From positions 29,237 to 93,236 of the forward strand of contig JANQED010000138.1 in the NCBI GenBank assembly GCA_028278545.1: DNA of 64,000 bases, written 5' to 3'. Of the stretch, positions 5,442 to 48,193 are shown in pieces. Both the position numbers and the translations under genes were made by a program. The notes under the pieces are model-generated. The model did not search any database, had not been told where the DNA came from, and was given only the letters and a program-made list of their open reading frames with translations. The DNA comes from Anaerolineales bacterium (lineage in GTDB: Bacteria > Chloroflexota > Anaerolineae > Anaerolineales > UBA11858). Position 1 is the stretch's first letter. Each line of letters starts with the position of its first letter.

Positions 5442-6560
5442 CTAAAGCAGTTCTCCCAGAGCCGCCAGCAGCAGAGTCACGTTCTCACGGCGAGCGCTGA
5501 AGCCCATCAAGCCGATGCGCCAAATCTGCCCGGCCAGGGGGCCAAAACCGCCAGCGATCTCGATGTTGTAATCGTCCAACAACCGGCGGCGGATGGCAGC
5601 TTCATCTATGCCGTCAGGGAGCTGCGGCGTGGTCAGCGAAGCCATGCGGTACTCCTCTGGAACGCGCGGCGGCAGCCCCAGGTTCTCCAGGCCAGCCCAT
5701 AGGGCTTCGGCAACCGACCGATGCCGCTTCCAGCGGGCCTCGATGCCCTCCTCAGCCCCCAAACGCAGCGCCTCACGTAAGGCATAGAACATATTGATCG
5801 GCCCGGTATGGTGGTATTTGTGCGGCTCCAGCCAATACTGCGACAGTCCCTGGATATCCAGATACCAGTTGGTGACGCGGCTTTGGCGCTGTCCAAAGAC
5901 TTCCATAGCACGGGCGTTGGCCGTGAAAGGCGCCAGCCCTGGCGGTGCGGACAGACATTTCTGCGATCCGCTGTAGCAGATATCGACATCCCAGCCATCC
6001 ACATCGACGGGCACCCCCCCCAGAGAGGCAACCGTATCCAATACCAGCAGCGCGCCGTGACGGTGAACGACTTCAGCGATCTCAGCTACGCGCGTCTGCA
6101 CGGTGCCAGTCGAGGTTTCGCCATGAACCAGGGTCACCAATCGATAGCCGCCGCCCTTGAGCGCGGCATCAAAATCCTCAGGAGTGAAGATCTCCCCCCA
6201 GGGGCGCTCGAGACGCTCCACCTGAGCGCCGTACCGCGAGGCCATATCGGCGAGGCGCTTTCCAAAGAAACCATTGACAGCCGTAAGCACGCGGTCGCCA
6301 GGCTCGACGAAATTGGCGATGGCTGTCTCCATCCCAGCAGTTCCCGTCCCCGATATGGGGATGGTAAACTCATTCTCCGTCTTGAAGGTATAGCGCAACA
6401 ACTCCTTCAGGTCGGCCATCACCGCCAAGATCTCGGGGTCAAGATACCCTACTGGGGGGTGGGCCAGGGCGCGCAAAACGCGCGGCGATACCATGCTCGG
6501 CCCAGGGCCTAACAAGATACGAAAGGGGAGATTCAAATCTTTGAATCGAGAGGGTTCCAT
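5442..6560 (-). CDS. Class V PLP-dependent aminotransferase (serine-pyruvate / alanine-glyoxylate aminotransferase-like)
   Basis: SGSQKCL PLP-lysine motif and N-terminal LLGPGPSMV. Start moved from 6671 to ATG 6560, which is preceded by AGGAGA. Confidence 0.85.
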   Translation of the reverse strand: MEPSRFKDLNLPFRILLGPGPSMVSPRVLRALAHPPVGYLDPEILAVMADLKELLRYTFKTENEFTIPISGTGTAGMETAIANFVEPGDRVLTAVNGFFGKRLADMASRYGAQVERLERPWGEIFTPEDFDAALKGGGYRLVTLVHGETSTGTVQTRVAEIAEVVHRHGALLVLDTVASLGGVPVDVDGWDVDICYSGSQKCLSAPPGLAPFTANARAMEVFGQRQSRVTNWYLDIQGLSQYWLEPHKYHHTGPINMFYALREALRLGAEEGIEARWKRHRSVAEALWAGLENLGLPPRVPEEYRMASLTTPQLPDGIDEAAIRRRLLDDYNIEIAGGFGPLAGQIWRIGLMGFSARRENVTLLLAALGELL

Positions 6561-6879
6561 ACCATATCTCCTAAGGGCGTCAACGAAGTCTCTATGACAC
6601 AAAGTGTACCCCAATTTTATGTCGCGAGCAGGGGGGAATTCCCAACTTTCAACAGTCAACTGTTCTTTCAATCCGCTACAGCCAGCGAAAAATTCGCTTT
6701 GCGATTCTGCGTCTTTGCGTGAGACCAGCTTTTGTTCAAGCTTCTAGTGATGGGTACAGTTCTTACAACAAATTTTGGAAGTCAGCGTAAAGATGCTTTC
6801 ATCTACTGGCAGGATAGCAACTTCATTAATATAGTGATATGATTTTATGCAATCAGGTTCTCGAACAGGATCAGAAAAG

Positions 6880-7020
6880 ATGAACGAAAACAAGATCGTC
6901 ATTCTGACAGATAGCTCCACCCACATCCCCGAAAGCATCAGAAAAGGGCTAAATATCTCCGTGATCCCCGTCTGGCTGCATTGGGATAACGACCGCTTCC
7001 GTGATGGCGTGGATATCGAT
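6880..7020 (+). pseudogene. Truncated remnant of a DegV-family (fatty-acid-binding) gene; only about the first 45 codons are recognisable
   Basis: MNENKIVILTDSSTHIPESIRKGLNISVIPVWLHWDNDRFRDGVDI matches the DegV N-terminus (xIxIVTDSxxDlP...I.VvPL.v.f.....rDGvDI). Similarity ends there, and the remainder of ORF 6847..7263 is lower-GC filler. Confidence 0.5.
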
Positions 7021-7149
7021 TGGCCGCTCAGCGGATCGGGGCATTCAGTGTCACTTTTTTTGGTTTTAAGTGAAGAGAAATCCACGCCAGGAGGGTGGTT
7101 TCCCCACGAAAAATCGTACAATATGGGGAAAAATTTACAAGTATCCAGC

Positions 7150-7178
7150 TTGATTCTGCATCCAAAATACTATACAAT
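7150..7178 (+). promoter_or_regulatory. Candidate sigma-70-type promoter for spoVS
   Basis: TTGATT (7150-7155), 17-nt spacer, TACAAT (7173-7178), about 40 nt upstream of the spoVS ATG. Confidence 0.4.
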
Positions 7179-7219
7179 AACATCAAGTGACCTAATCACG
7201 GTGGAACAAAGGAATCACA

Positions 7220-7510
7220 ATGGAAACAGTGAACAGCGATACCGGTCACATCGATACAATTAAAGTCGCAGCGAACTCACGAACGTCCGCTGTGGCGGGC
7301 GCGATTGCAGGTGTCTTTCGTGAGCACCAGCGCGCCGAAGTACAGGCAATTGGGGCCAGCGCAGTCAACCAAGCCGTAAAAGCTCTAGCACTCGCCAAAG
7401 GATATCTAGAAGAAGACGGCTTCAACATCGTGTGCATTCCCTACTTTGTCGATGTTGAAATCGATGGCAAAGTGCGCACAGCGATCCGTTTTACTGTCGA
7501 ACCCCATTGA
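7220..7510 (+). CDS. spoVS: SpoVS-family protein (stage V sporulation protein S homologue)
   Basis: 96 aa. IKVAANSRTSAVAGAIAGVFREHQRAEVQAIGASAVNQAVKALALAKGYL...IVCIPYFVDVEIDGKVRTAIRFTVEP is collinear with Bacillus SpoVS. Confidence 0.85.
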   Translation: METVNSDTGHIDTIKVAANSRTSAVAGAIAGVFREHQRAEVQAIGASAVNQAVKALALAKGYLEEDGFNIVCIPYFVDVEIDGKVRTAIRFTVEPH

Positions 7511-9217: not shown

Positions 9218-10183
9218 ATGATCCGACCCCTTGGCTGGCGAGACTTGCCAACCCTTTACCGCTATCGCCACCAGGGCGTTTTTTTGAACAGCGCGCTGGC
9301 GGCAACGCGTGGCACCGGGCTGCTCCCCAGCGTTTTATTGGATGGCCTAAGCGGGATCACGTGGGTGTGCATGGAAGATTGCGACGAACAGCCTTTGATC
9401 GGTCAGAGTATGCAAGAGGCATCGTCACCCTCTGCCCGCATTTCTTTCCTGGCTCCCCGGGAGGCCCTGGAGTCACCCAGCACCCAAGAATTGCTTGAAC
9501 AACTCGCTCACCAGGCCGGGCAGCGCGGCGCCTTCCATTTGCTGGCTGAGGTCAATTCAGACTCATCGATTTTCGAGACTTTGCGCAGGGCCGGGTTTGC
9601 CTCATATGCCCGCCAACGAATCTGGCAATGGGATCAAGAAACCCAGAGAGCTACCAGACTGCACTCATGGCGCATCACACAATTTGGCGACCTTCCCCGC
9701 TTGCAGGCACTCTACCGCCAAGTGGTGCCCGAATTCGTGGCGCAGATTGAACCACCTGACGGAGGAACATCCCCGCCTGGGCTGATTTATTATGACGACA
9801 ACGAACTCAGGGGCTTTGCCGTGATCAGCTATGGAGGGCACGGCATCTGGGTGAAACCGTACTTCCAGCCCCATCTGGAGGGAATCGACCATCTGCTCAG
9901 AGACCTCATTGAGAGTATTCCAGACCGGCGCGCCCGCCCCATTTATCTCTGTGTCAGGGCATACCAACCCCATCTGGAACCAGCTCTGGAAGCTATGGGG
10001 GCAACCCCCAGCCCGAGGCAAACGGTGATGGTCAAACATATGGCAGCCCACCATAAACTCAGAGAAACTTTCAAATTGCCTAACTTGAACGGACAACCCG
10101 AGACTCCACTGGCACACACAAGCCAGAACGCCTATTCCAGTGGAGAACTTATCTCTCATGCCAGCACAAAAAATAACCGATGA
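9218..10183 (+). CDS. Hypothetical protein, possibly a tandem GNAT-like acetyltransferase fold
   Basis: 321 aa from ATG 9218 (the ORF-track start 9128 overlaps pdxT). Segments such as [32 protein letters not shown] resemble GNAT C-terminal motifs. The assignment is weak. Confidence 0.35.
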
Positions 10184-11747
10184 CTTAGATGCCCTGATGG
10201 GAGTGCTGCCTTCCGATATCGCCCAGGCGATCGATCAGGCCAATGACAGCAGCAATCTGTTGGAAGTCGTCCTCGACCTGGGGCGCGTCCCAACAGCGCG
10301 TTTCCTGACAGGTGAAGTTGTGCTGCGCGAAGAGGAGGTGGCGCGCGCCGATATCGATTGCGTTGGTTCGCGCGTCAGTGAGTTCGATGACGACAATCGC
10401 GCTGGGCTGGAACGCACGCTGCACCGCATCTCTGCCATCCGCAACCGCCGCGGCGATATCGTCGGCCTGACCTGCCGGGTAGGCCGGGCCGTATACGGCA
10501 CTACGGAGATCATCAAGGATTTGATCGAGGACCATAAAAGCCTGCTGATTCTGGGACGCCCCGGCGTGGGCAAGACCACCATGCTGCGCGAGGCGGCCCG
10601 GATTTTGGCGGAATCGAAACGAGTGGTGATCGTCGATACATCCAACGAGATCGGCGGCGATGGCGACGTACCCCATCCCGCGGTTGGGCGCGCCCGGCGT
10701 ATGCAGGTCGCCAAGCCCTCTTTGCAGCACGAAGTGATGATCGAGGCCGTGGAGAATCACAACCCCGAGGTGATCGTCATCGATGAGATCGGCCGCGAAC
10801 TGGAGGCCATCGCTGCCCGCACCATCGCTGAACGCGGCGTGCAGTTGATCGGCACTGCTCATGGCAACACCCTGGAGAACCTGCTGCTCAACCCCACACT
10901 GTCCGATCTGGTTGGCGGAATCGAGTCCGTTACGCTCTCTGATGAAGAAGCCCGTCGGCGCGGCACACAAAAGACCGTTCTGGAACGTCGCTCGCCGCCG
11001 ACCTTCGATGTGCTCATCGAAATCCAAACTCGCGACCGGCTGGCTATCCATCGGGATGTGTCTGCTTCCGTAGACGCCTTATTACGCGGCCATCCACATA
11101 CTCCGGAAATCCGCTCGCGCGACGAAAACGGTGAGATCCGCATTAAAAAGGGCAGCAAAGCGATACAACTGCACCAACCTATTGGCGGCATGCGGCGCCA
11201 GCACGAAAACGCCGCCTGGGAAGACACCGACACAGGCGAATTGCTCCAAACCCAACTCGAACCACCCCAGCGTGAGCAGCTTCAGGAAATCCGTATTTTC
11301 TCTTACGGGGTCGCCCGCAACCGTTTACGACAGGCGGCGCGGCAGCTCAAAGTGCCCATTCAAACGGAGACCGATCTCTATCAGGCCCAGGCCGTGGTCA
11401 CGTTGAGGCACCACTTCCGCAAGCGCAATCAAGCCATCGTCGAGGCTGAAAATTTGGGCATCCCCATCTATGTGCTGCGTTCTGATACCCGCACCCAACT
11501 GACGCGTTTCCTGAGCGGCCTGTTCAACCTGACTCCAACCCGTCCGGGCAAGCAAGACGACGAAGAAGCACTGCAGCAGACTCAACGCGCCATCAAGACC
11601 GTGCTGGATGGGGAACGCTGGGTCGAACTCGATCCGGCTACATCCTACATCCGGCGGCTGCAGCATCAAATGGCCCGCCAGGCAAATCTGCTCTCCTACT
11701 CCCACGGCAAAGAGCCTCACCGCAGGGTGAGGATTTATCGGGAGTAG
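10140..11747 (+). CDS. Ycf45 / SpoIIIAA-like AAA ATPase with C-terminal R3H (ssNA-binding) domain
   Basis: 535 aa. Walker [39 protein letters not shown], Walker [10 protein letters not shown]-terminal [28 protein letters not shown] is R3H-like. Confidence 0.8.
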
Positions 11748-11921
11748 AAACAAGCCGACGAAACGACCAAATCAATCATCCATGTCCATAGTCATTCAAA
11801 ACTTTGGGCGAAGAGTCAAAACGTCTCAGAGAAGTTGTCAAGCATAGCATATCGTGTTAAGGTATATTCACACTATCTGTTACCAAATAGTCTTATCACG
11901 ACAACTGTGGGAGGAATATTG

Positions 11922-13070
11922 ATGAAAAAGCCAGCATCACTCGACGAATGGTATCGCTTAGTAAATTCAATTTATATGGATCGGAATTTCTATCGCACTC
12001 CAGATTCAGTTTTTACTCATTTGGTTGAAGTGGTAGGAGGGCTTAGTTCATCTGCTAGTCGTAAATTAAAAACGAGGAAAAATGGCGTTACTTATCTGGC
12101 AAAAGCTTTAGGCTGGTGGTTAACGTTGTGCGGGCACATTGGGGTCAGAAGTGTCGAGGCATTGATTTGGAAAAAATTTCCTTATGTATGTCCATATTGC
12201 AGAAAGATTCCTCATGCAAAGCGTGACTGCGAAATTTATCGCGAATCCAATGTAGGAATTGATTGGAATGAACTTGACAACTTGGGAAGAAGAAATAAGC
12301 AAAAACGCCCAAGGGCACTTCGGTCATGGCAAAAAATGTTTGACAACATATACATGATTGATGATTCAGCAGACAGAAAAATAATATTCGGTCGACTGGC
12401 AGAGGAACTTGGGGAACTAGCCGAAGGGATTCGATTGTTACCAGTAAGCCATGCATACTACATGAATGAAGCTGTGGATGTTTTCGCCTGGATAATGCGC
12501 TATGCAAATTTTGAGGAAAGTGAGCGAAAGGCTAGTGCTAATAGTGTTGGGGTGTTAATAGAAGATGCACTTTGGGATGAATACCCTGGTCAATGTAAAC
12601 ATTGTGAAACTGAAGTATGCAAATGTGCTCCTTTTCTCTACGAAAACCTTGGGCGATTATCTCGAGAGATGCCTATTGAGGCTTATCGTGAAGCTGATGA
12701 TCTGAGCCTGTTTACTTTTGAGGAGAAAATCGAAATTTTTAGATATGGGGATACTAATCTGACCGTGGGGAGAAAAACAATCAAACTGACCTCAGAATTA
12801 TTAGAAGAAATGGTGCGTACATCGAGAGCGATTCTTGACAAGGATGAAGAATTGTCCTTGAATCTACCTCAAAACACTCAAGAAGCTTTTCATCAACTAG
12901 CCCATTTAGCTTCTCAACAGCAAGTTACCCAGAAGAGTGTTGACAAACTAACTACTACATTACGAGATGTCCCAATTGATGCCAGAAAACTCATCAGTGA
13001 TTTCCTTTTAGGCATTAGTGCAGGGCTCTGGGCCGAAGCTATTATCTTGTTCCTTAAAAGCATCAAATAA
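11922..13070 (+). CDS. Tandem MazG-like all-alpha NTP pyrophosphohydrolase (module 1 degenerate, module 2 intact), each module ending in a Cys knuckle, plus a helical C-terminal tail
   Basis: 382 aa from ATG 11922 (GGAGGA RBS). Module 2 has RLAEELGELAEG and NEAVDVFAW (EExxE / ExxD metal-ligand motifs), then YPGQCKHCETEVCKC. Module 1 has HLVEVVGGLS and LAKALGWWL (acidic ligands lost), then FPYVCPYCRKIPHAKRDC. The locus is AT-rich. Confidence 0.6.
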   Translation: MKKPASLDEWYRLVNSIYMDRNFYRTPDSVFTHLVEVVGGLSSSASRKLKTRKNGVTYLAKALGWWLTLCGHIGVRSVEALIWKKFPYVCPYCRKIPHAKRDCEIYRESNVGIDWNELDNLGRRNKQKRPRALRSWQKMFDNIYMIDDSADRKIIFGRLAEELGELAEGIRLLPVSHAYYMNEAVDVFAWIMRYANFEESERKASANSVGVLIEDALWDEYPGQCKHCETEVCKCAPFLYENLGRLSREMPIEAYREADDLSLFTFEEKIEIFRYGDTNLTVGRKTIKLTSELLEEMVRTSRAILDKDEELSLNLPQNTQEAFHQLAHLASQQQVTQKSVDKLTTTLRDVPIDARKLISDFLLGISAGLWAEAIILFLKSIK

Positions 13071-13091
13071 TTATCACTACGGAGATGTACC

Positions 13092-13718
13092 TTGAGCTTA
13101 TTCATCACTTTTGAAGGGCCGGATGGTAGCGGCAAGTCTTCACAAATAGCTAAACTAACTAAATATCTAGAAGATAACGGATATTCTGTCATAAATACGC
13201 GAGAACCAGGCGGGACTTCCATTGGGAATCAGATTAGAGATATCGTTTTAAAATCCGAAAATACGGAAATGCACCAACGCGCTGAGATTTTGCTATTCCA
13301 AGCATCGCGCGCCCAACTTGTCGAACAGGTCATCCGGCCCCACTTAGAAAAAGGGGGCGTTGTGCTGTGCGATCGGTACGCGGATTCGACTCTGGCTTAC
13401 CAGGGCTACGGCTATGGGCGCGACATCCACGAACTGCGCGCCATCATCAACTTCGCCACTGGCGGCCTCAAGCCAGACCTGACCCTGCTCCTGGATGTCG
13501 ATGTGAAAATCGGCCTCGCCCGCCGACGGGAAGGCGGTGATGTCAACCGGTTAGATATCTTTGAATTGACCTTCCATCAAAATGTGCGCCAGGGGTACCA
13601 TCAATTAGCCCAGGCAGAGCCGCAACGCTGGGTGACCATCGACGCCGGGCAACCCACAGAGCGGGTACAGAGAAGAATCCGCAAAATCATCCTGGAACGA
13701 CTGCGCGCTCAAGAGTAA
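13092..13718 (+). CDS. tmk: Thymidylate kinase
   Basis: 208 aa, TTG start. FITFEGPDGSGKSSQ P-loop, DRYADSTLAYQG. Confidence 0.95.
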   Translation: MSLFITFEGPDGSGKSSQIAKLTKYLEDNGYSVINTREPGGTSIGNQIRDIVLKSENTEMHQRAEILLFQASRAQLVEQVIRPHLEKGGVVLCDRYADSTLAYQGYGYGRDIHELRAIINFATGGLKPDLTLLLDVDVKIGLARRREGGDVNRLDIFELTFHQNVRQGYHQLAQAEPQRWVTIDAGQPTERVQRRIRKIILERLRAQE

Positions 13719-44007: not shown

Positions 44008-45939
44008 GTGCAAACCATCCGCCGTTTATACCGCTACCTTGTCGCGTTTATCAGTCTGGAAGTCGTACTTTGGGGGTTGATTGAGTTAGTCAGAACGATG
44101 TTTTCGGACGAAGTCATCGGTGAGGGCGTCAGCCAATTGGCGGGGGGGCTGTCGCTGCTCCTGGTCGGGATTCCCGTCTTCCTGCTTCACTGGCTCCCTG
44201 CTCAGAGGAGTGCAACGAAGGATGAAGAAGAGCGTTCCAGCCGCATTCGAGCGATTTTCCTCTATGGCGCGCTGCTGGCCACCTTGATCCCCATCGCCCA
44301 GAATGTATTAGCGCTGATCAACCGCCTTTGGCTGCAACTCTTCCGACTGCCTCTCGATCAGGCTATTTTAGGGGGGGCACAAAACTGGATCGAAAATCTC
44401 ATCGCCATTGTGATGAACAGCCTGATCGCCGGCTATATCTACTATGTGATCCGCAATAATTGGGAAGAGCCCCCAACCGGGGACTCCTTCCCTGAAACAC
44501 GCCGCCTGTATCGCTATATCTGGGTGCTCTACTTCCTGGCGATGTTGGTCGGTGGGTTCACACTGGTTCTGCAATACACCCTCACCATTGGGGAAACCCT
44601 GGGCAGCGGTCCTCAAGCCAGGCTGGCGAACGGGCTTGCGCTGCTGATCGTTGGCGCTCCCTTATGGGCCGTGACCTGGCTGCGAGTTCAGGCCACCCTT
44701 GACCAGCCTGATGAGCGAAGGTCAATTCTGCGCCTGGTGGTCCTTTATCTGCTCAGCTTAATCGGGGTTGGGGGCGTGCTCCTCCCTGCTGGCATAGTAC
44801 TCGATGCGATTTTACGCGCATCCTTAGGGGAGAATCTGCCCCTATCTGGTTTCCTCAACGAAATCAGCATCCCGGTTTCAGCCCTCATCCCCTTAGGGGG
44901 AGTGTGGTTCTATTACGGACGCACCTTATCGACTGAGATCGCATTGCTGCCCGAATCTCCGCGACGCTCCGGCTTGCGCAGGACATATTTCTATATCTTG
45001 GGGTTCTTCGGGTTAGCCGCTTTCGTAATGGGGCTGCACATGCTGTTGGGATTCCTGATCGACCTGCTCCTGGGCACCTCCACCATCGGCGATGTAACGC
45101 TGCGCAATCGGCTAACAGCCGCTTTAGCAACCCTGATTGTGGGCCTGCCGCTGTGGATGCAGACCTGGCGCCCCATGGTCAAAGAAGCCTCCCAAGAAGG
45201 TGAAGCCGGCGACCATGCCCGGCGCTCGCTCGTCCGCAAAATCTATCTTTATCTGGTGCTTTTTGCCAGTGTGATTGGGGTGATGGTCGCTGCCGGGGGG
45301 TTGATCTTCGAGTTGTTAAAAGCGTTGTTAGGCGACCCGGCCACAGACTTGTTGCGCAAAGCTTTGATGCTGCTGGAGATGCTGATTCTCTTCTCGCTGG
45401 TCTTGGCTTATCATTGGAATGCCCTGCGGATCGACAGCCATCTAGCTGCGCGCGCTCTGGCTGAGCGCCACGCCGCTTACCCCGTCTTGGTACTGGCCTC
45501 CGAGATCGGTGAGTTCACTGAAAGCATCATCAATGCCCTGCAACGCGAAGCCGCATCCCTGCCGGTTGCCGTTCACCTGGCGGAGAACGGCGCTCCCGAC
45601 GCAACCCTATCCGAGGCCAAGGCCGTTGTCCTTCCTGGCGAACTGAGCGTATCGCCCCCTGAGGCGTTGCGCTTGTGGCTTAAGGATTTCGACGGCGAGA
45701 GCGTGGTCGCCCCCACCCCCATGGAGCGCTGGCACTGGGTCTACGGTAGTGGGCGTGAACTTCCCAGAGTAGCCCGCCAAACCGCTAAGATCATCCGTCA
45801 CCTGGCCGAAGGGGAAGACCTGCCGGGACCGGCTGACGCATCTACCTGGCGCATTGTGCTTTATGTTTTGGCGGGGATGATCGGCCTCCCCCTGACCTTG
45901 GGCCTGATCGGGATGCTGTTGTCTTTCGTATCTGACTAG
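44008..45939 (+). CDS. Large polytopic membrane protein built from five repeated two-helix modules (DUF5671-like)
   Basis: 643 aa, GTG start. Recurring R-R-x-Y-x-Y-(hydrophobic helix) modules: IRRLYRYLVAF, TRRLYRYIWVLYF, ERRSILRLVVLYL, LRRTYFYILGFF, RRSLVRKIYLYLVLF. Confidence 0.65.
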   Translation: MQTIRRLYRYLVAFISLEVVLWGLIELVRTMFSDEVIGEGVSQLAGGLSLLLVGIPVFLLHWLPAQRSATKDEEERSSRIRAIFLYGALLATLIPIAQNVLALINRLWLQLFRLPLDQAILGGAQNWIENLIAIVMNSLIAGYIYYVIRNNWEEPPTGDSFPETRRLYRYIWVLYFLAMLVGGFTLVLQYTLTIGETLGSGPQARLANGLALLIVGAPLWAVTWLRVQATLDQPDERRSILRLVVLYLLSLIGVGGVLLPAGIVLDAILRASLGENLPLSGFLNEISIPVSALIPLGGVWFYYGRTLSTEIALLPESPRRSGLRRTYFYILGFFGLAAFVMGLHMLLGFLIDLLLGTSTIGDVTLRNRLTAALATLIVGLPLWMQTWRPMVKEASQEGEAGDHARRSLVRKIYLYLVLFASVIGVMVAAGGLIFELLKALLGDPATDLLRKALMLLEMLILFSLVLAYHWNALRIDSHLAARALAERHAAYPVLVLASEIGEFTESIINALQREAASLPVAVHLAENGAPDATLSEAKAVVLPGELSVSPPEALRLWLKDFDGESVVAPTPMERWHWVYGSGRELPRVARQTAKIIRHLAEGEDLPGPADASTWRIVLYVLAGMIGLPLTLGLIGMLLSFVSD

Positions 45940-45950
45940 AAAGACAAAAC

Positions 45951-46703
45951 CTAGGATAGAATTTTATCCAGATCGTAATTCCCGCTATTGAATTCTACAA
46001 GTCTAACCCAATCTATAGAACCGTCATTAGTACAGAATTTTTCAATAAATTCTCTAGTAAATTTGTTCTCAACCCGTGACTTTTCATTATCGAATGTTTC
46101 ATTGTGCTCTCTGGTGCGATAGCCAATAGGTTCAACGATATCAGTATACAAATTCTCGTTTTCGCTGATCAAGTACCAGAAGTCCCGACCAACCACTTGT
46201 AGGTAACCACGAAGATAATTTGTTCGTGGTTTTCCATAGCAAATACCCAGAACGGGCTGAACGTTTTTTCCATGTTGTGATTGTTTAAGGCGAATTACCG
46301 CATTACGCAAATCGTCCGCAAGTTTATTTTGCTGAGAACTGTTTCTCCACTTTGTCCCAGACATTACAGAAACGATGTAAAGGGCCCCCTTTTTCTCAAA
46401 CTCGATGTCAACTCCAGAAGTTGTCGATTCGCGACCATCAAATGTTTGACTTACCACAAATAGTACCAGGTCTTTTAGAAAGTCAGAATATATTTTGTCT
46501 TCGGCCTGTGAAAGGGAAACATCCAGAAGCCTATTTATCAACTCACCCACACCAAAAATTCTCTCTGTCCTGAGCAGATAAGAGTCCATAGCAAGAAGTT
46601 GCGAAAGGGTCTGGCTTTGCAATGATTTAAGCCTGCTTTCATGTAAACTGGAAATCCCATTTTTCACAAAAGCACTAGTATGGTCAAAGGAAAGTGTTCT
46701 CAT
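45951..46703 (-). CDS. Putative PD-(D/E)xK restriction-endonuclease-like protein (family not resolved)
   Basis: 250 aa from ATG 46703 (GGAGGA RBS; ORF-track start is 46730). Core sequence SGVDIEFEKKGALYIVSVMSGTKWRNSSQQNK. AT-rich island. Confidence 0.45.
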   Translation of the reverse strand: MRTLSFDHTSAFVKNGISSLHESRLKSLQSQTLSQLLAMDSYLLRTERIFGVGELINRLLDVSLSQAEDKIYSDFLKDLVLFVVSQTFDGRESTTSGVDIEFEKKGALYIVSVMSGTKWRNSSQQNKLADDLRNAVIRLKQSQHGKNVQPVLGICYGKPRTNYLRGYLQVVGRDFWYLISENENLYTDIVEPIGYRTREHNETFDNEKSRVENKFTREFIEKFCTNDGSIDWVRLVEFNSGNYDLDKILS

Positions 46704-46760
46704 CAGAATCCTCCGAAAAACTATTTTCACCTGTTAAACCGCTTCACTAAATATTGGGGC

Positions 46761-46791
46761 TATACCTTAGCAAACGTTCGTTAAAGGTATA
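46761..46791. promoter_or_regulatory. Inverted repeat overlapping a TATAAT box in the divergent island promoter region
   Basis: TATACCTT (46761-46768), 15-nt spacer, AAGGTATA (46784-46791). TATAAT at 46788-46793. Confidence 0.35.
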
Positions 46792-46830
46792 ATAAATTGC
46801 ATCTCTCTCACCTTAACCTGCTAAAGAGAA

Positions 46831-48027
46831 TTGACTGTGCCAAGAAGAAAAAAGAAGGACAATTTTTCACAAAGATTGATAAATCTTATCTCTGAACCAG
46901 AGTTTATTAAATTTGAGAACATTTTGGGAGAACCCAATTTCTTCAAGATCGTCGGAAGGTCTCATTTTGAACGTTGGCATTCGGCCTTCTTCGGGTGGCT
47001 TTTAGACGCTCAGGGTTCGCATTTACTGTCTGATTACGTACTGCGCCGCTTTCTTATGTTACTCCTTGATGTGGAATGCCTAAACGCCATAAATTCTTCA
47101 GAGGAATTTCTTATAAATACCTTGCCTATTGTAGAATTTTCAGATATCCAAGTTTTTCCAAACGAAAACAGTTCGTCCGAAACCAGTGTTGCTGGAGTTG
47201 GCAGATTCGATGTGTTTTTAACTGCTAACTTCATTGACAACGACGGCAACAGCGGTGATTTAAATATTATTTTCGAATTCAAGATCGACTCCAAACCGAA
47301 CGCCGAGCAATCAGAGAAGTATGCTAATTGGCTTTTCACAAATCATCCTGGAGATGAAAATTTCTTGATATATGTATTACCAGAACTATTACTCGATGCA
47401 AAGTCAACAGTTGGTGATGATAGGTGGCACTGTTTAAATTACCAATTATTGAATGACAAACTTCTTGTTCCAATTCTGAGTCATCCCAATTTAAATGAGA
47501 AAGCAAAGCCTTTCATAATTCAATATGTTAAGAATCTTCAAATCCGTTATAAAGGAATCAAAATGGCAATAACAGATGAAGAAAAACGGTTAGCTTTGAC
47601 CCTATATGAGAAATACAGCGATGTTTTTGATTCCATCTATGATGCGCTCGTCTCAGTCGGGGCTATAGATTCCAGCACGTCTGGCGTTGTAGAAAGTAAA
47701 GGTCGGGAAACAGGACGTTTAGCAGTAAAAGTGGGCAAGAAAGTCTTTTCAAACGAAACCGTGAGGCTCCTGTTTGAAAACATCCTTAGATATATTGTTG
47801 ATAATGATTTTATAGTTAAGTTGCCTTTGCCTTGGGGATCAAGCAAGACCCGTTATATTGTAACTAATGAAGATCCTCCTATTCACCCAAATGGTAGAGC
47901 TTTCTTCTATCCTGTCTCTTACAATGGATATACGATTGAAAGTCACTATCCCCGGGACAGAGCACTAAAAGTTCTTAGTGATTTGTGTAAGAAGCTAGAA
48001 ATAGAGTTTGAAGCAATAGAAACTTAG
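46831..48027 (+). CDS. PDDEXK_4-type (PF14281-like) PD-(D/E)xK nuclease-superfamily protein with an unassigned C-terminal domain
   Basis: 398 aa, TTG start (alternative GTG at 46837). NFFKIVGRSHFERWHSAFFGWLLD and GRFDVFL...LNIIFEFKIDSKPNAEQSEKY motifs. Confidence 0.65.
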   Translation: MTVPRRKKKDNFSQRLINLISEPEFIKFENILGEPNFFKIVGRSHFERWHSAFFGWLLDAQGSHLLSDYVLRRFLMLLLDVECLNAINSSEEFLINTLPIVEFSDIQVFPNENSSSETSVAGVGRFDVFLTANFIDNDGNSGDLNIIFEFKIDSKPNAEQSEKYANWLFTNHPGDENFLIYVLPELLLDAKSTVGDDRWHCLNYQLLNDKLLVPILSHPNLNEKAKPFIIQYVKNLQIRYKGIKMAITDEEKRLALTLYEKYSDVFDSIYDALVSVGAIDSSTSGVVESKGRETGRLAVKVGKKVFSNETVRLLFENILRYIVDNDFIVKLPLPWGSSKTRYIVTNEDPPIHPNGRAFFYPVSYNGYTIESHYPRDRALKVLSDLCKKLEIEFEAIET

Positions 48028-48193
48028 AATTAAAAGTGGGGATGTATTTTCATTGAAAGACTTCACATAAACCATTTCCTTAAATTGTGCAATGAACGTT
48101 TGTTCTATTGTACCCCATCTTGTCTCATTTTATGTGACCGCGACGACAATACAGGCTAATTACCCAAAGAATATACCAAAGACATTTGTCATT

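Follow-up and report, generated by a model that had tools for sequence, protein, structure and literature searches.

The stretch of DNA analyzed here, called the window throughout, comprises 64,000 nucleotides of contig JANQED010000138.1 from an Anaerolineales bacterium (assembly GCA_028278545.1). At 11750-13091 it holds a gene for a 382-residue tandem MazG-like protein, set between a gene for an R3H/SpoIIIAA-like ATPase (R3H-ATPase) and tmk, the thymidylate kinase gene (Pfam Thymidylate_kin, E = 2.5e-52), which starts at 13092, 21 nucleotides past the stop of the MazG-like gene. A Shine-Dalgarno sequence, GGAGG, lies 7 nucleotides before the ATG at 11922. A first-pass annotation, made from the sequence alone, had described the segment as an AT-rich insertion encoding two MazG-type modules, one dead and one live, and had taken the gene for a phage-derived or anti-phage factor rather than a housekeeping one. 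The 382-amino-acid (aa) product, the motifs quoted for it and its position directly 5' of tmk are all present. What had been overlooked is tmk itself, which is both a chimera and a recurrent partner of this protein family.

A horizontally acquired cassette and a chimeric tmk

The segment 11750-13091 has a G+C content of 40.5%, against 54.6% for the window (z = -3.4 against all 1,300-nucleotide windows), and the earlier hand counts at 12301-12360 (40.0%) and 12721-12780 (36.7%) are exact. In a sliding profile, G+C falls from 58 to 59% in the upstream gene to 40% over 11750-13250 and returns to 58% by 13250-13550. The tract had been ended at 13091; low G+C does extend that far, and it runs on to approximately 13270, taking in about the first 60 codons of tmk for a total of about 1.5 kb.

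The history of the junction was read from 80 related metagenome contigs that encode homologs of the upstream R3H-ATPase at 62 to 81% identity. Where the sequence beyond the R3H-ATPase gene could be read, tmk in most cases comes next, after about 3 to 130 bp, and the tandem MazG-like gene is found in none of the 80. On this comparison, the R3H-ATPase gene followed directly by tmk is the ancestral order, and the window has 1.35 kb inserted, which bears out the earlier call of an insertion. The insert carries a single gene. No flanking repeats, att-like sites, or integrase were found around it, no promoter consensus and no terminator were found at the cassette, and its neighbors in the window include neither phage structural genes nor integrase genes. 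The low-G+C cassette of about 1.5 kb was thus horizontally acquired at a conserved R3H-ATPase/tmk junction of an Anaerolineae-like Chloroflexota chromosome. Other inserts occupy this junction in five relatives (L108, L119, L122, L136, and L155; Table 1), indicating that small accessory cassettes have settled there repeatedly. Homologs of the MazG-like gene (40 to 62% identity) lie directly 5' of tmk in five other Chloroflexota loci (L002, L005, L012, L014, and L175), and the R3H-ATPase gene is also visible upstream in all of these except L012.

The right-hand end of the cassette lies within tmk. In steps of 60 nucleotides, the G+C content of tmk is 45, 35, and 37% over the first 180 nucleotides and 55 to 62% thereafter; G+C at third codon positions (GC3) is 0.35 in codons 1 to 60 versus 0.66 afterwards, a difference of -0.31. 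The same difference in 55 tmk genes from uninterrupted sites has a mean of -0.013, a standard deviation of 0.071, and a minimum of -0.165, so that the window gene takes the most extreme value (z = -4.2). An ordinary start-of-gene effect is ruled out, since the drop is absent from these 55 genes. The two parts of the protein also have different relatives: the N-terminal 62 residues match best the low-G+C tmk that is linked to the cassette in L002 (70.5%, rank 1 of 81), whereas the C-terminal part matches best the uninterrupted-site tmk genes of L128 and L118 (72%), with L002 at rank 13. The tmk gene of the window is therefore a chimera with the right-hand crossover inside it, which means that the donor DNA held the MazG-like gene followed by tmk.

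The same process is frozen at other stages in three loci. L014 carries the MazG-like gene, a complete low-G+C tmk (41%), and the resident high-G+C tmk, in that order; a 50-aa tmk fragment lies 5' of the gene in L005, and a C-terminal tmk fragment lies 3' of it in L023. Within L014 (8060-9314), low-G+C sequence that lacks an obvious start codon has replaced the 5' end of the resident tmk, about 12 codons, and the first P-loop glycine of this tmk is substituted (ETSEGSGKS); this copy may be decaying. We conclude that the transferred unit is the MazG-like gene plus tmk, with tmk as the recombination anchor.

The leader of the cassette contains a loose inverted-repeat motif, ACTATCTGTTACCAAATAGT, about 30 to 50 nucleotides 5' of the start codon. 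A similarly placed motif of weak conservation is seen in L014, L005, and L016, and it could be a candidate operator or promoter element. The 174-nucleotide leader as a whole has no Rfam match, a fold z score of -0.41, and, apart from this loosely shared motif, no upstream conservation across loci; an RNA antitoxin or riboswitch was rejected on these three negatives.

Two MazG-type modules in one chain

The motifs noted in the protein are HLVEVVGGLS (aa 33-42), LAKALGWWL (aa 59-67), and CPYCRKIPHAKRDC (aa 90-103) in the first half and RLAEELGELAEG (aa 158-169), NEAVDVFAW (aa 182-190), and CKHCETEVCKC (aa 225-235) in the second, with LLGISAGLWAEAIILFLKSIK at the C terminus. Aligned with hhalign, module 1 (aa 1-112) matches module 2 (aa 125-245) with a probability of 97.1% (E = 6.5e-11, 92 columns), and these columns include the FP/YPxxCxxC knuckle, so that the duplicated unit comprises the MazG helices together with the knuckle. 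The identity of the fold comes from a family profile built on 79 full-length homologs, which matches Sulfolobus SSO3215 (1vmg_A), a MazG-related protein, at E = 4e-6 over aa 126-202. These two results uphold the two-module reading of the first-pass annotation.

Only the second module keeps the acidic ligands. E161, E162, E165, E168, E183, and D186 are invariant or at least 90% conserved among 79 close homologs; of 150 diverse representatives, 95 to 99% retain each of five of these residues and 86% retain E168. Mapped onto module 1, E161 corresponds to E36, which is kept, while E162, E165, and E183 become V37, G40, and K61, D186 is deleted, and E168 has no acidic counterpart. The first module is accordingly dead in the sense proposed earlier, and it has a conserved set of its own, N22, H33, E36, K61, W65, W66, W83, and K85. 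Both Cys-rich knuckles noted in the first pass are conserved features of the family: among the 150 representatives, C90, C93, and C103 of knuckle 1 are found in about 99% and H98 in 92%, and the four Cys of knuckle 2 are found in 98 to 100%; predicted local confidence (pLDDT) at knuckle 1 is about 95 to 98.

AlphaFold models the full-length protein with a pLDDT of 90.1 and a predicted TM score (pTM) of 0.70 and the core, aa 1-258, as an all-helical structure with a pLDDT of 92 and a pTM of 0.90, and the core model indicates that both modules probably form a single compact body. Together with the internal duplication, this suggests that two homologous modules of the all-alpha MazG type, one of them degenerate, pair within the single chain of the window protein as an intramolecular pseudo-dimer, as had been surmised. 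The helical tail of about 130 residues described earlier is real in the window protein. Its hydrophobic end, with a borderline Kyte-Doolittle 19-residue mean of 1.79, is not a feature of the family: the position of the hydrophobic segment is not conserved across the 79 homologs, and C-terminal membrane anchoring is not supported. The C-terminal helical domain is common to the subfamily of about 380 aa and to some deaminase fusions, and it has no family match in Pfam, NCBIfam, PADLOC, PHROGs, or the family-profile search.

The resemblance to the MazG superfamily (PF03819; SSO3215, 1vmg) lies in the EExxE...ExxD acids of module 2 on paired helices, the profile match, and the all-helical model. 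The window protein differs in staying under the Pfam threshold as a single sequence, in having two modules per chain, the first without ligands, and in its C-terminal helical domain. A Cys/His knuckle ending each module is not known from classical MazG proteins. Escherichia coli MazG (3cra) likewise has two MazG-type domains per polypeptide, and both of them retain the catalytic motif, unlike module 1 of the window protein. It also has no knuckles, whereas the window protein has two and an N-terminal module without metal ligands, and its gene sits in the relA-mazEF region, not beside tmk (10.1101/2022.06.09.495361).

Table 1. Features of the window locus and of comparable inserts in related contigs
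Feature	Position	Strand	Basis
R3H/SpoIIIAA-like ATPase gene, resident, native G+C of about 59%; left insertion boundary	10140-11747	+	Pfam PTPase, R3H, Spore_III_AA
Cassette leader, low G+C	11748-11921	+	Sequence; Shine-Dalgarno GGAGG at 11910-11914
Loose inverted repeat, ACTAT-N10-ATAGT, in cassette leader	11872-11891		Sequence
Tandem MazG-like gene, 382 aa, intact, including stop	11922-13070	+	Open reading frame, homologs, AlphaFold
Module 1, degenerate MazG-type helical, aa 1-85	11922-12176	+	hhalign, conservation
Knuckle 1, aa 86-103, FPxxC90-x2-C93-x4-H98-x4-C103, predicted CCHC zinc site	12177-12230	+	Conservation, hhalign with knuckle 2
Module 2, live MazG-type, aa ~130-220; E161, E162, E165, E168, R171, E183, D186	12309-12581	+	1vmg profile, conservation
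Knuckle 2, aa 221-237, YPxxC225-x2-C228-x4-C233-x-C235, predicted CCCC zinc site	12582-12632	+	Conservation
C-terminal helical domain of ~125 aa, uncharacterized	12699-13067	+	AlphaFold helices and one hairpin, pLDDT ~90
tmk 5' part, donor-derived, codons ~1-60	13092-13270	+	Cassette-like low G+C
tmk 3' part, resident, native G+C	13271-13718	+	Best matches are uninterrupted-site tmk; Pfam Thymidylate_kin spans the full protein
mazEF pair at R3H-ATPase/tmk junction	L119 7587-8466; L122 7587-8424		
MNT-type nucleotidyltransferase at R3H-ATPase/tmk junction	L108 7602-8041		
DUF433/PIN-like pair and NUDIX protein at R3H-ATPase/tmk junction	L155 7635-8791		
HtrA-type protease at R3H-ATPase/tmk junction	L136 3631-5130		

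Distribution, fusions, and genomic partners of the family

A word-seeded search yielded 413 homologs, and an exhaustive scan of 1.84 billion representatives yielded 419 clusters at 50% identity. A pattern scan recovered members from at least 101 of 185,579 species genomes, scattered over many phyla that include Chloroflexota, Acidobacteriota, Nitrospirota, Planctomycetota, Chlorobi, Thermotogae, Actinomycetota, and Proteobacteria, as well as bacteria of the candidate phyla radiation (CPR) and DPANN archaea. In 46 of 87 loci the gene has a G+C content lower than that of its flanks by more than 5 points; an excess of more than 5 points occurs in only one. Widespread, vertically inherited, and compositionally native homologs, which would have spoken against a foreign gene, are thus not the pattern of this rare and patchy family, with the exception that the core-only forms of CPR and DPANN genomes are native in composition. 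The family is covered by no model of Pfam, NCBIfam, PADLOC, or PHROGs; scans of the window protein against NCBIfam, PADLOC-DB v2.0.0 (0 families at E ≤ 1), and PHROGs returned nothing, and a tandem, knuckle-bearing, Tmk-linked family was not found described in the literature that could be searched.

The constant element of the family is a core of about 250 aa. Among 112 full-core representatives, 58 have the tail of the window protein, 20 consist of the core only, 21 have an N-terminal extension, and 13 have a long C-terminal extension. Those extensions that were checked with Pfam are, on the N-terminal side, a dCMP/cytidine deaminase (most of the 21), a class III cyclase, or a Ser/Thr kinase and, on the C-terminal side, a CHAT protease or a PNP_UDP_1 phosphorylase. 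The deaminase-fused relatives include P0113, P0125, and P0107, and the deaminase of P0113 has intact HAE and PC...C motifs; the window protein itself has no match to a cytidine/dCMP deaminase (HAE...PCxxC) in Pfam. A deaminase-core protein and a cyclase-core protein share 71% identity over the core and have unrelated N-terminal domains, which implies a recent domain swap. The core-only homologs of CPR bacteria and DPANN archaea (L070 to L091) are about 228 aa long, are 21 to 30% identical to the window protein, and keep both modules and both Cys clusters, with an all-Cys knuckle 1.

The proposal of a phage-derived origin did not hold up. No relatives were found in IMG/VR (2.9 million contigs), INPHARED (50,697 phage genomes), or PHROGs, nor were any found in PLSDB (72,556 plasmids), and on the results from IMG/VR, INPHARED, and PLSDB a phage or plasmid origin was rejected. 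It is therefore very improbable that the gene is a prophage or virus remnant, a stranded auxiliary or anti-defense MazG of the kind of phage Atd1 or MazZ, even though MazG-like enzymes and thymidylate kinases are common in phages, the nearest structural neighbors are, weakly, phage NTP-pyrophosphatase (NTP-PPase)-like proteins, and Atd1 provides a precedent (10.1101/2022.06.09.495361). The structural resemblance comes from BFVD, whose top matches are phage proteins with probabilities of 0.9 to 1.0 and E values of 0.05 to 1, the named ones being mostly NTP-PPase-like. Such a remnant also fits poorly with a single-gene insert and a window in which phage structural and integrase genes do not flank it.

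Neighbor clustering over 81 loci identified Thymidylate_kin as the sole recurrent neighbor family (Pfam E = 1e-17 to 1e-44). A gene of this family lies within two open reading frames (ORFs) of the MazG-like gene in 14 of 62 close-family loci, and L012 and L023, detected by tblastn, bring the count to about 16 (about 26%); L174 is a further case. The neighborhood survey thus answers the earlier question of whether homologs always adjoin tmk: the partner recurs and is not constant. It is restricted to window-type and deaminase-type members. At L034 the Tmk gene (52% G+C) and the MazG-like gene (54%) both stand out from flanks of 72 to 78%, and Tmk likewise shares the deviant G+C of the cassette in L038, L016, L011, and L032.

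Such linkage could also mark a toxin-antidote pair, in which dTTP or dCTP is depleted by the pyrophosphatase and flux is restored by the Tmk linked to it, the pair stabilizing its islet or triggering abortive infection when its expression is unbalanced. In many loci the two genes are on the same strand and 12 to 130 bp apart, cassette DNA has taken the place of part of an essential gene, which would make loss costly, and classical toxin-antitoxin cassettes occupy the same junction in relatives. Most family members, however, have no Tmk neighbor, and in L011, L032, and L033 the MazG-like and Tmk-like genes lie on opposite strands; we consider this account quite improbable.

Two loci add to the picture of the kinase partner. 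In an Anaerolinea metagenome-assembled genome (MAG), a low-G+C islet (L023, 4250-8930) combines a 425-aa family member fused to a deaminase with tmk, the C-terminal tmk fragment, two divergent Thymidylate_kin genes of 211 and 335 aa, and a gene of 267 aa that resembles dCTP deaminase/dUTPase, a concentrated toolkit in which the partners all act on pyrimidine deoxynucleotides. The cassette-linked Tmk-like protein of a Nitrospirota MAG (L016/L172, 11261-12592) has 443 aa, of which aa 13-202 form the kinase domain and the C-terminal 240 or so residues have no Pfam match. From the deaminase fusions, the Tmk partner, and the L023 islet we infer a link of the family to pyrimidine nucleotides.

Genes of conflict systems are frequent around the family. 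The annotated neighborhoods include TIR, DUF4145, Mrr, type I and type III restriction-modification, peptidase M78, transposases, integrase, HicA, PLD, HEPN/NTase, DarT/Macro, AIPR, HNH, ABC-3C (CTD9/MC5), and AbiEii; sampled nearby ORFs add SIR2, PIN, Mokosh, MADS, Upx, and PD-T4-6, and ORFs 5.5 to 10 kb away add pAgo-SIR2, Dpd, DISARM, PsyrT, and restriction-modification. Most annotated contexts have genes for defense, toxin-antitoxin systems, or mobile elements at distances of up to about 7 kb. A census of near versus far ORFs against PADLOC gave strong defense matches in both sets; the far set therefore provides no valid background, and the association with defense islands is qualitative.

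At L007 (5638-9164), in an Actinomycetota defense island, the homolog is directly preceded on the same strand by a DUF7002 protein and a 535-aa protein, a P-loop kinase fused to an adenylosuccinate synthetase (AdSS)-like domain, an arrangement seen once. We take this pairing of MazG with an AdSS-like domain to recall the phage PurZ/MazZ 2-aminoadenine pathway. The window has a second low-G+C islet at 45800-48400, with a minimum of 37.6% over 1,300 nucleotides, which encodes an EcoO109I-type restriction endonuclease (45951-46730, minus strand, Pfam E = 1.6e-45) and a PD-(D/E)XK nuclease (46831-48027, plus strand), and this suggests that defense cargo tends to occupy low-G+C islets of this genome. 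Shorter tracts below 46% G+C lie at 6501-7301, where a 138-aa ORF (6847-7263) matches an N-terminal fragment of DegV, and at 54001-54601.

Predicted function and competing explanations

Taken as a whole, the explanation that we favor, and to which we give about an even chance, is that an acquired cassette encodes a pseudo-dimeric pyrimidine (deoxy)nucleoside triphosphate, or (d)NTP, pyrophosphohydrolase that acts with Tmk in defense. The protein is predicted to be Mg2+ dependent and to have a single composite active site, to which module 1 would contribute a base pocket and phosphate contacts unless it acts as an allosteric site, and both knuckles would bind zinc and brace the pseudo-dimer. 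A pyrimidine (d)NTP would be cleaved to the monophosphate and pyrophosphate, the candidate substrates being dCTP, dUTP, dTTP, or a phage-type 5-modified analog. The partner of the thymidylate kinase family, which would be the co-transcribed chimeric tmk in the window and a dedicated Tmk-like gene at other loci, might set the return flux from dTMP or dUMP to the diphosphate. Through such manipulation of the deoxynucleotide pool, the system would defend against phages or other mobile DNA.

Enzymatic activity, substrate, and anti-phage effect are predictions, and the proposed defense would parallel the known dCTP-deaminase and dGTPase systems. The logic would be the same, to starve phage replication of deoxynucleotides, and relatives of the window protein carry a dCMP/cytidine deaminase and adjoin a P-loop nucleotide kinase. 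In AvcD, too, a deaminase is combined with a kinase-like domain. Nucleotide-depletion defenses are known for dCTP deaminase/AvcD and for dGTPase (10.1101/2021.04.26.441389; 10.1101/2021.03.31.437871; PMC10511110). Unlike these enzymes, the window protein has no deaminase and would release pyrophosphate instead of deaminating its substrate or removing triphosphate; unlike in AvcD, its kinase is a separate, genuine Thymidylate_kin gene, and there is no signal of a small-RNA antitoxin of the AvcI type.

MazG domains have appeared in defense predictions before. A MazG-like domain is the predicted NTP-targeting effector in a variant of PUA-Calcineurin-HAD systems (PMC12871103), and MazG is a predicted, unvalidated defense domain that accompanies a predicted nucleotide kinase in the MazG/MazG-C kinase systems (PMC13092281); the PUA, HAD, and MazG-C domains of these systems were not detected in the window family. 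A kinase partner in a minority of loci also has a parallel, since 12% of bacterial viperins, compared with about 26% here, adjoin a nucleoside monophosphate kinase that supplies their substrate (10.1101/2023.09.13.557418), and the CMPK2-type kinase belongs to the thymidylate kinase superfamily. Viperin, however, is a radical-SAM maker of chain terminators, whereas the window enzyme would undo the phosphorylation fed by the kinase.

Several results weigh against the favored explanation. The Pfam MazG model (PF03819) gives the single sequence 11.8 bits against a cutoff of 22 (E = 0.3, aa 158-209), and the best score among relatives is 20.4 bits (P0125, E = 6e-4). Foldseek searches of PDB with the full-length and core models returned no match at E ≤ 0.001; in the nonsignificant list for the core, E. 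coli MazG (3cra) ranks fourth (E = 0.69), and dimeric dUTPases and the Thermotoga MazG-related protein 2yxh are listed as well. The class of substrate is assigned by guilt by association, about three-quarters of family loci have no Tmk neighbor, and such a neighbor is absent from all forms with a long C-terminal extension, those with CHAT and PNP domains among the ones checked. The low-G+C tmk genes of Chloroflexota could in part reflect transfer by homologous recombination between related genomes, with tmk merely the homology arm. The association with defense genes is qualitative, many neighborhoods also contain ordinary metabolic genes, and the compositionally native core-only homologs of CPR and DPANN genomes, which may be the housekeeping ancestor of the family, could themselves be housekeeping enzymes.

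The last two points would suit an acquired sanitizer of pyrimidine dNTPs, for example of dUTP or 5-modified dCTP, that is co-expressed with tmk and tunes dTTP in a house-cleaning or salvage role. MazG-family enzymes are classically house-cleaning, the gene has an operon-like position 21 nucleotides before an essential nucleotide kinase, and human DCTPP1 prefers dCTP and 5-modified dCTP (PMC7162842). This is nonetheless improbable for the window gene, and the earlier judgment that it is no housekeeping gene agrees with the wider family: the gene is absent at the same site in 80 relatives, the family is rare, patchy, and systematically poorer in G+C than its flanks, conflict-type fusions to CHAT, cyclase, and kinase domains occur, and the loci recur beside defense, toxin-antitoxin, and transposase genes.

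The fusions lead to a different alternative, that the core is a sensor or signal module. It would bind, and may turn over, a noncanonical pyrimidine nucleotide that reports infection and is made by the fused deaminase together with a Tmk-like or phage kinase, and the variable domains (CHAT protease, PNP-type nucleosidase, cyclase, kinase, or helical tail) would be the effectors. The model for such a device is Kongming, in which KomA is an adenosine deaminase, KomB a HAM1-like sensor, and KomC a SIR2 protein, and in which the deaminase and a nucleotide kinase make dITP that is sensed by a dead HAM1 pyrophosphatase fold (10.1101/2024.12.20.629578). The same trio occurs in the window family, where a house-cleaning NTP-pyrophosphatase fold, one copy of it catalytically dead, is combined with a base deaminase and a nucleotide kinase. 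A constant core of about 250 aa carries swappable domains of the kinds typical of immune effectors, the swap of deaminase and cyclase domains on cores 71% identical is recent, and the catalytically dead module 1 is strongly conserved, as expected of a ligand-binding site. The fusions to CHAT, kinase, and cyclase domains suit a sensor better than a simple depletion pipeline.

Unlike in Kongming, however, the fold is MazG and not HAM1, the deaminase is of the cytidine and not the adenosine type, a live module is kept, SIR2 is missing, and the kinase is encoded by the host in the cassette whereas Kongming borrows its kinase from the phage; adenosine deaminase, HAM1-like, and SIR2 domains were found neither in the gene nor in its neighbors in the window. 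In contrast to KomB, module 2 keeps its catalytic residues in nearly all members of the family, the window protein has an uncharacterized helical tail in place of a recognizable effector domain, and the deaminase and PNP fusions can equally be explained as successive steps of nucleotide destruction. We therefore regard a sensor as possible and rather unlikely, although the house-cleaning, toxin-antidote, and prophage-remnant accounts are less well supported than it is. The kept catalytic residues argue against a purely sensory role, and the fusions to CHAT, cyclase, and kinase domains speak for a signaling function of some kind.

In a more speculative scheme, which we hold to be doubtful, the tandem MazG core would receive and time an immune signal based on pyrimidines, and the system would be a pyrimidine counterpart of Kongming that is complete in itself. 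A deaminase, which is fused to the core in relatives, and the Tmk-like kinase of the cassette would turn a deoxynucleoside monophosphate derived from infection into a noncanonical dNTP, such as dUTP or 5-hydroxymethyl-dUTP from (hm)dCMP; this dNTP would be bound by the dead module and degraded by the live one, and its binding would activate the interchangeable effectors (CHAT, PNP-type nucleosidase, cyclase, kinase, or helical tail), the whole spreading by recombination into the essential tmk gene. The window protein stands outside dCTP deaminase/AvcD, dGTPase, Kongming, and every system of PADLOC v2.

The anatomy and evolutionary behavior of the family are unusual and well supported, and its function is a proposal. 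Lying outside the models of Pfam, NCBIfam, PADLOC, and PHROGs, the family is missed by current annotation and defense-finding pipelines. Known defenses acting on the nucleotide pool work through deamination (dCTP deaminase and AvcD), triphosphate removal (dGTPase), or nucleosidase activity; defense by a dedicated (d)NTP pyrophosphohydrolase has so far been predicted and not demonstrated, and the family offers a compact and well-modeled candidate. With a live site beside a dead one, and with zinc probably bracing the chain at two points, it is also a tractable case of the passage from a homodimeric house-cleaning enzyme to an asymmetric single chain. Its effector-swapping architectures could reveal a recruitment of the MazG fold to sense noncanonical nucleotides, like that of HAM1 in Kongming. 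Finally, the chimeric state of an essential tmk gene suggests that small defense cassettes without an integrase may spread by using a conserved housekeeping gene as their recombination anchor.

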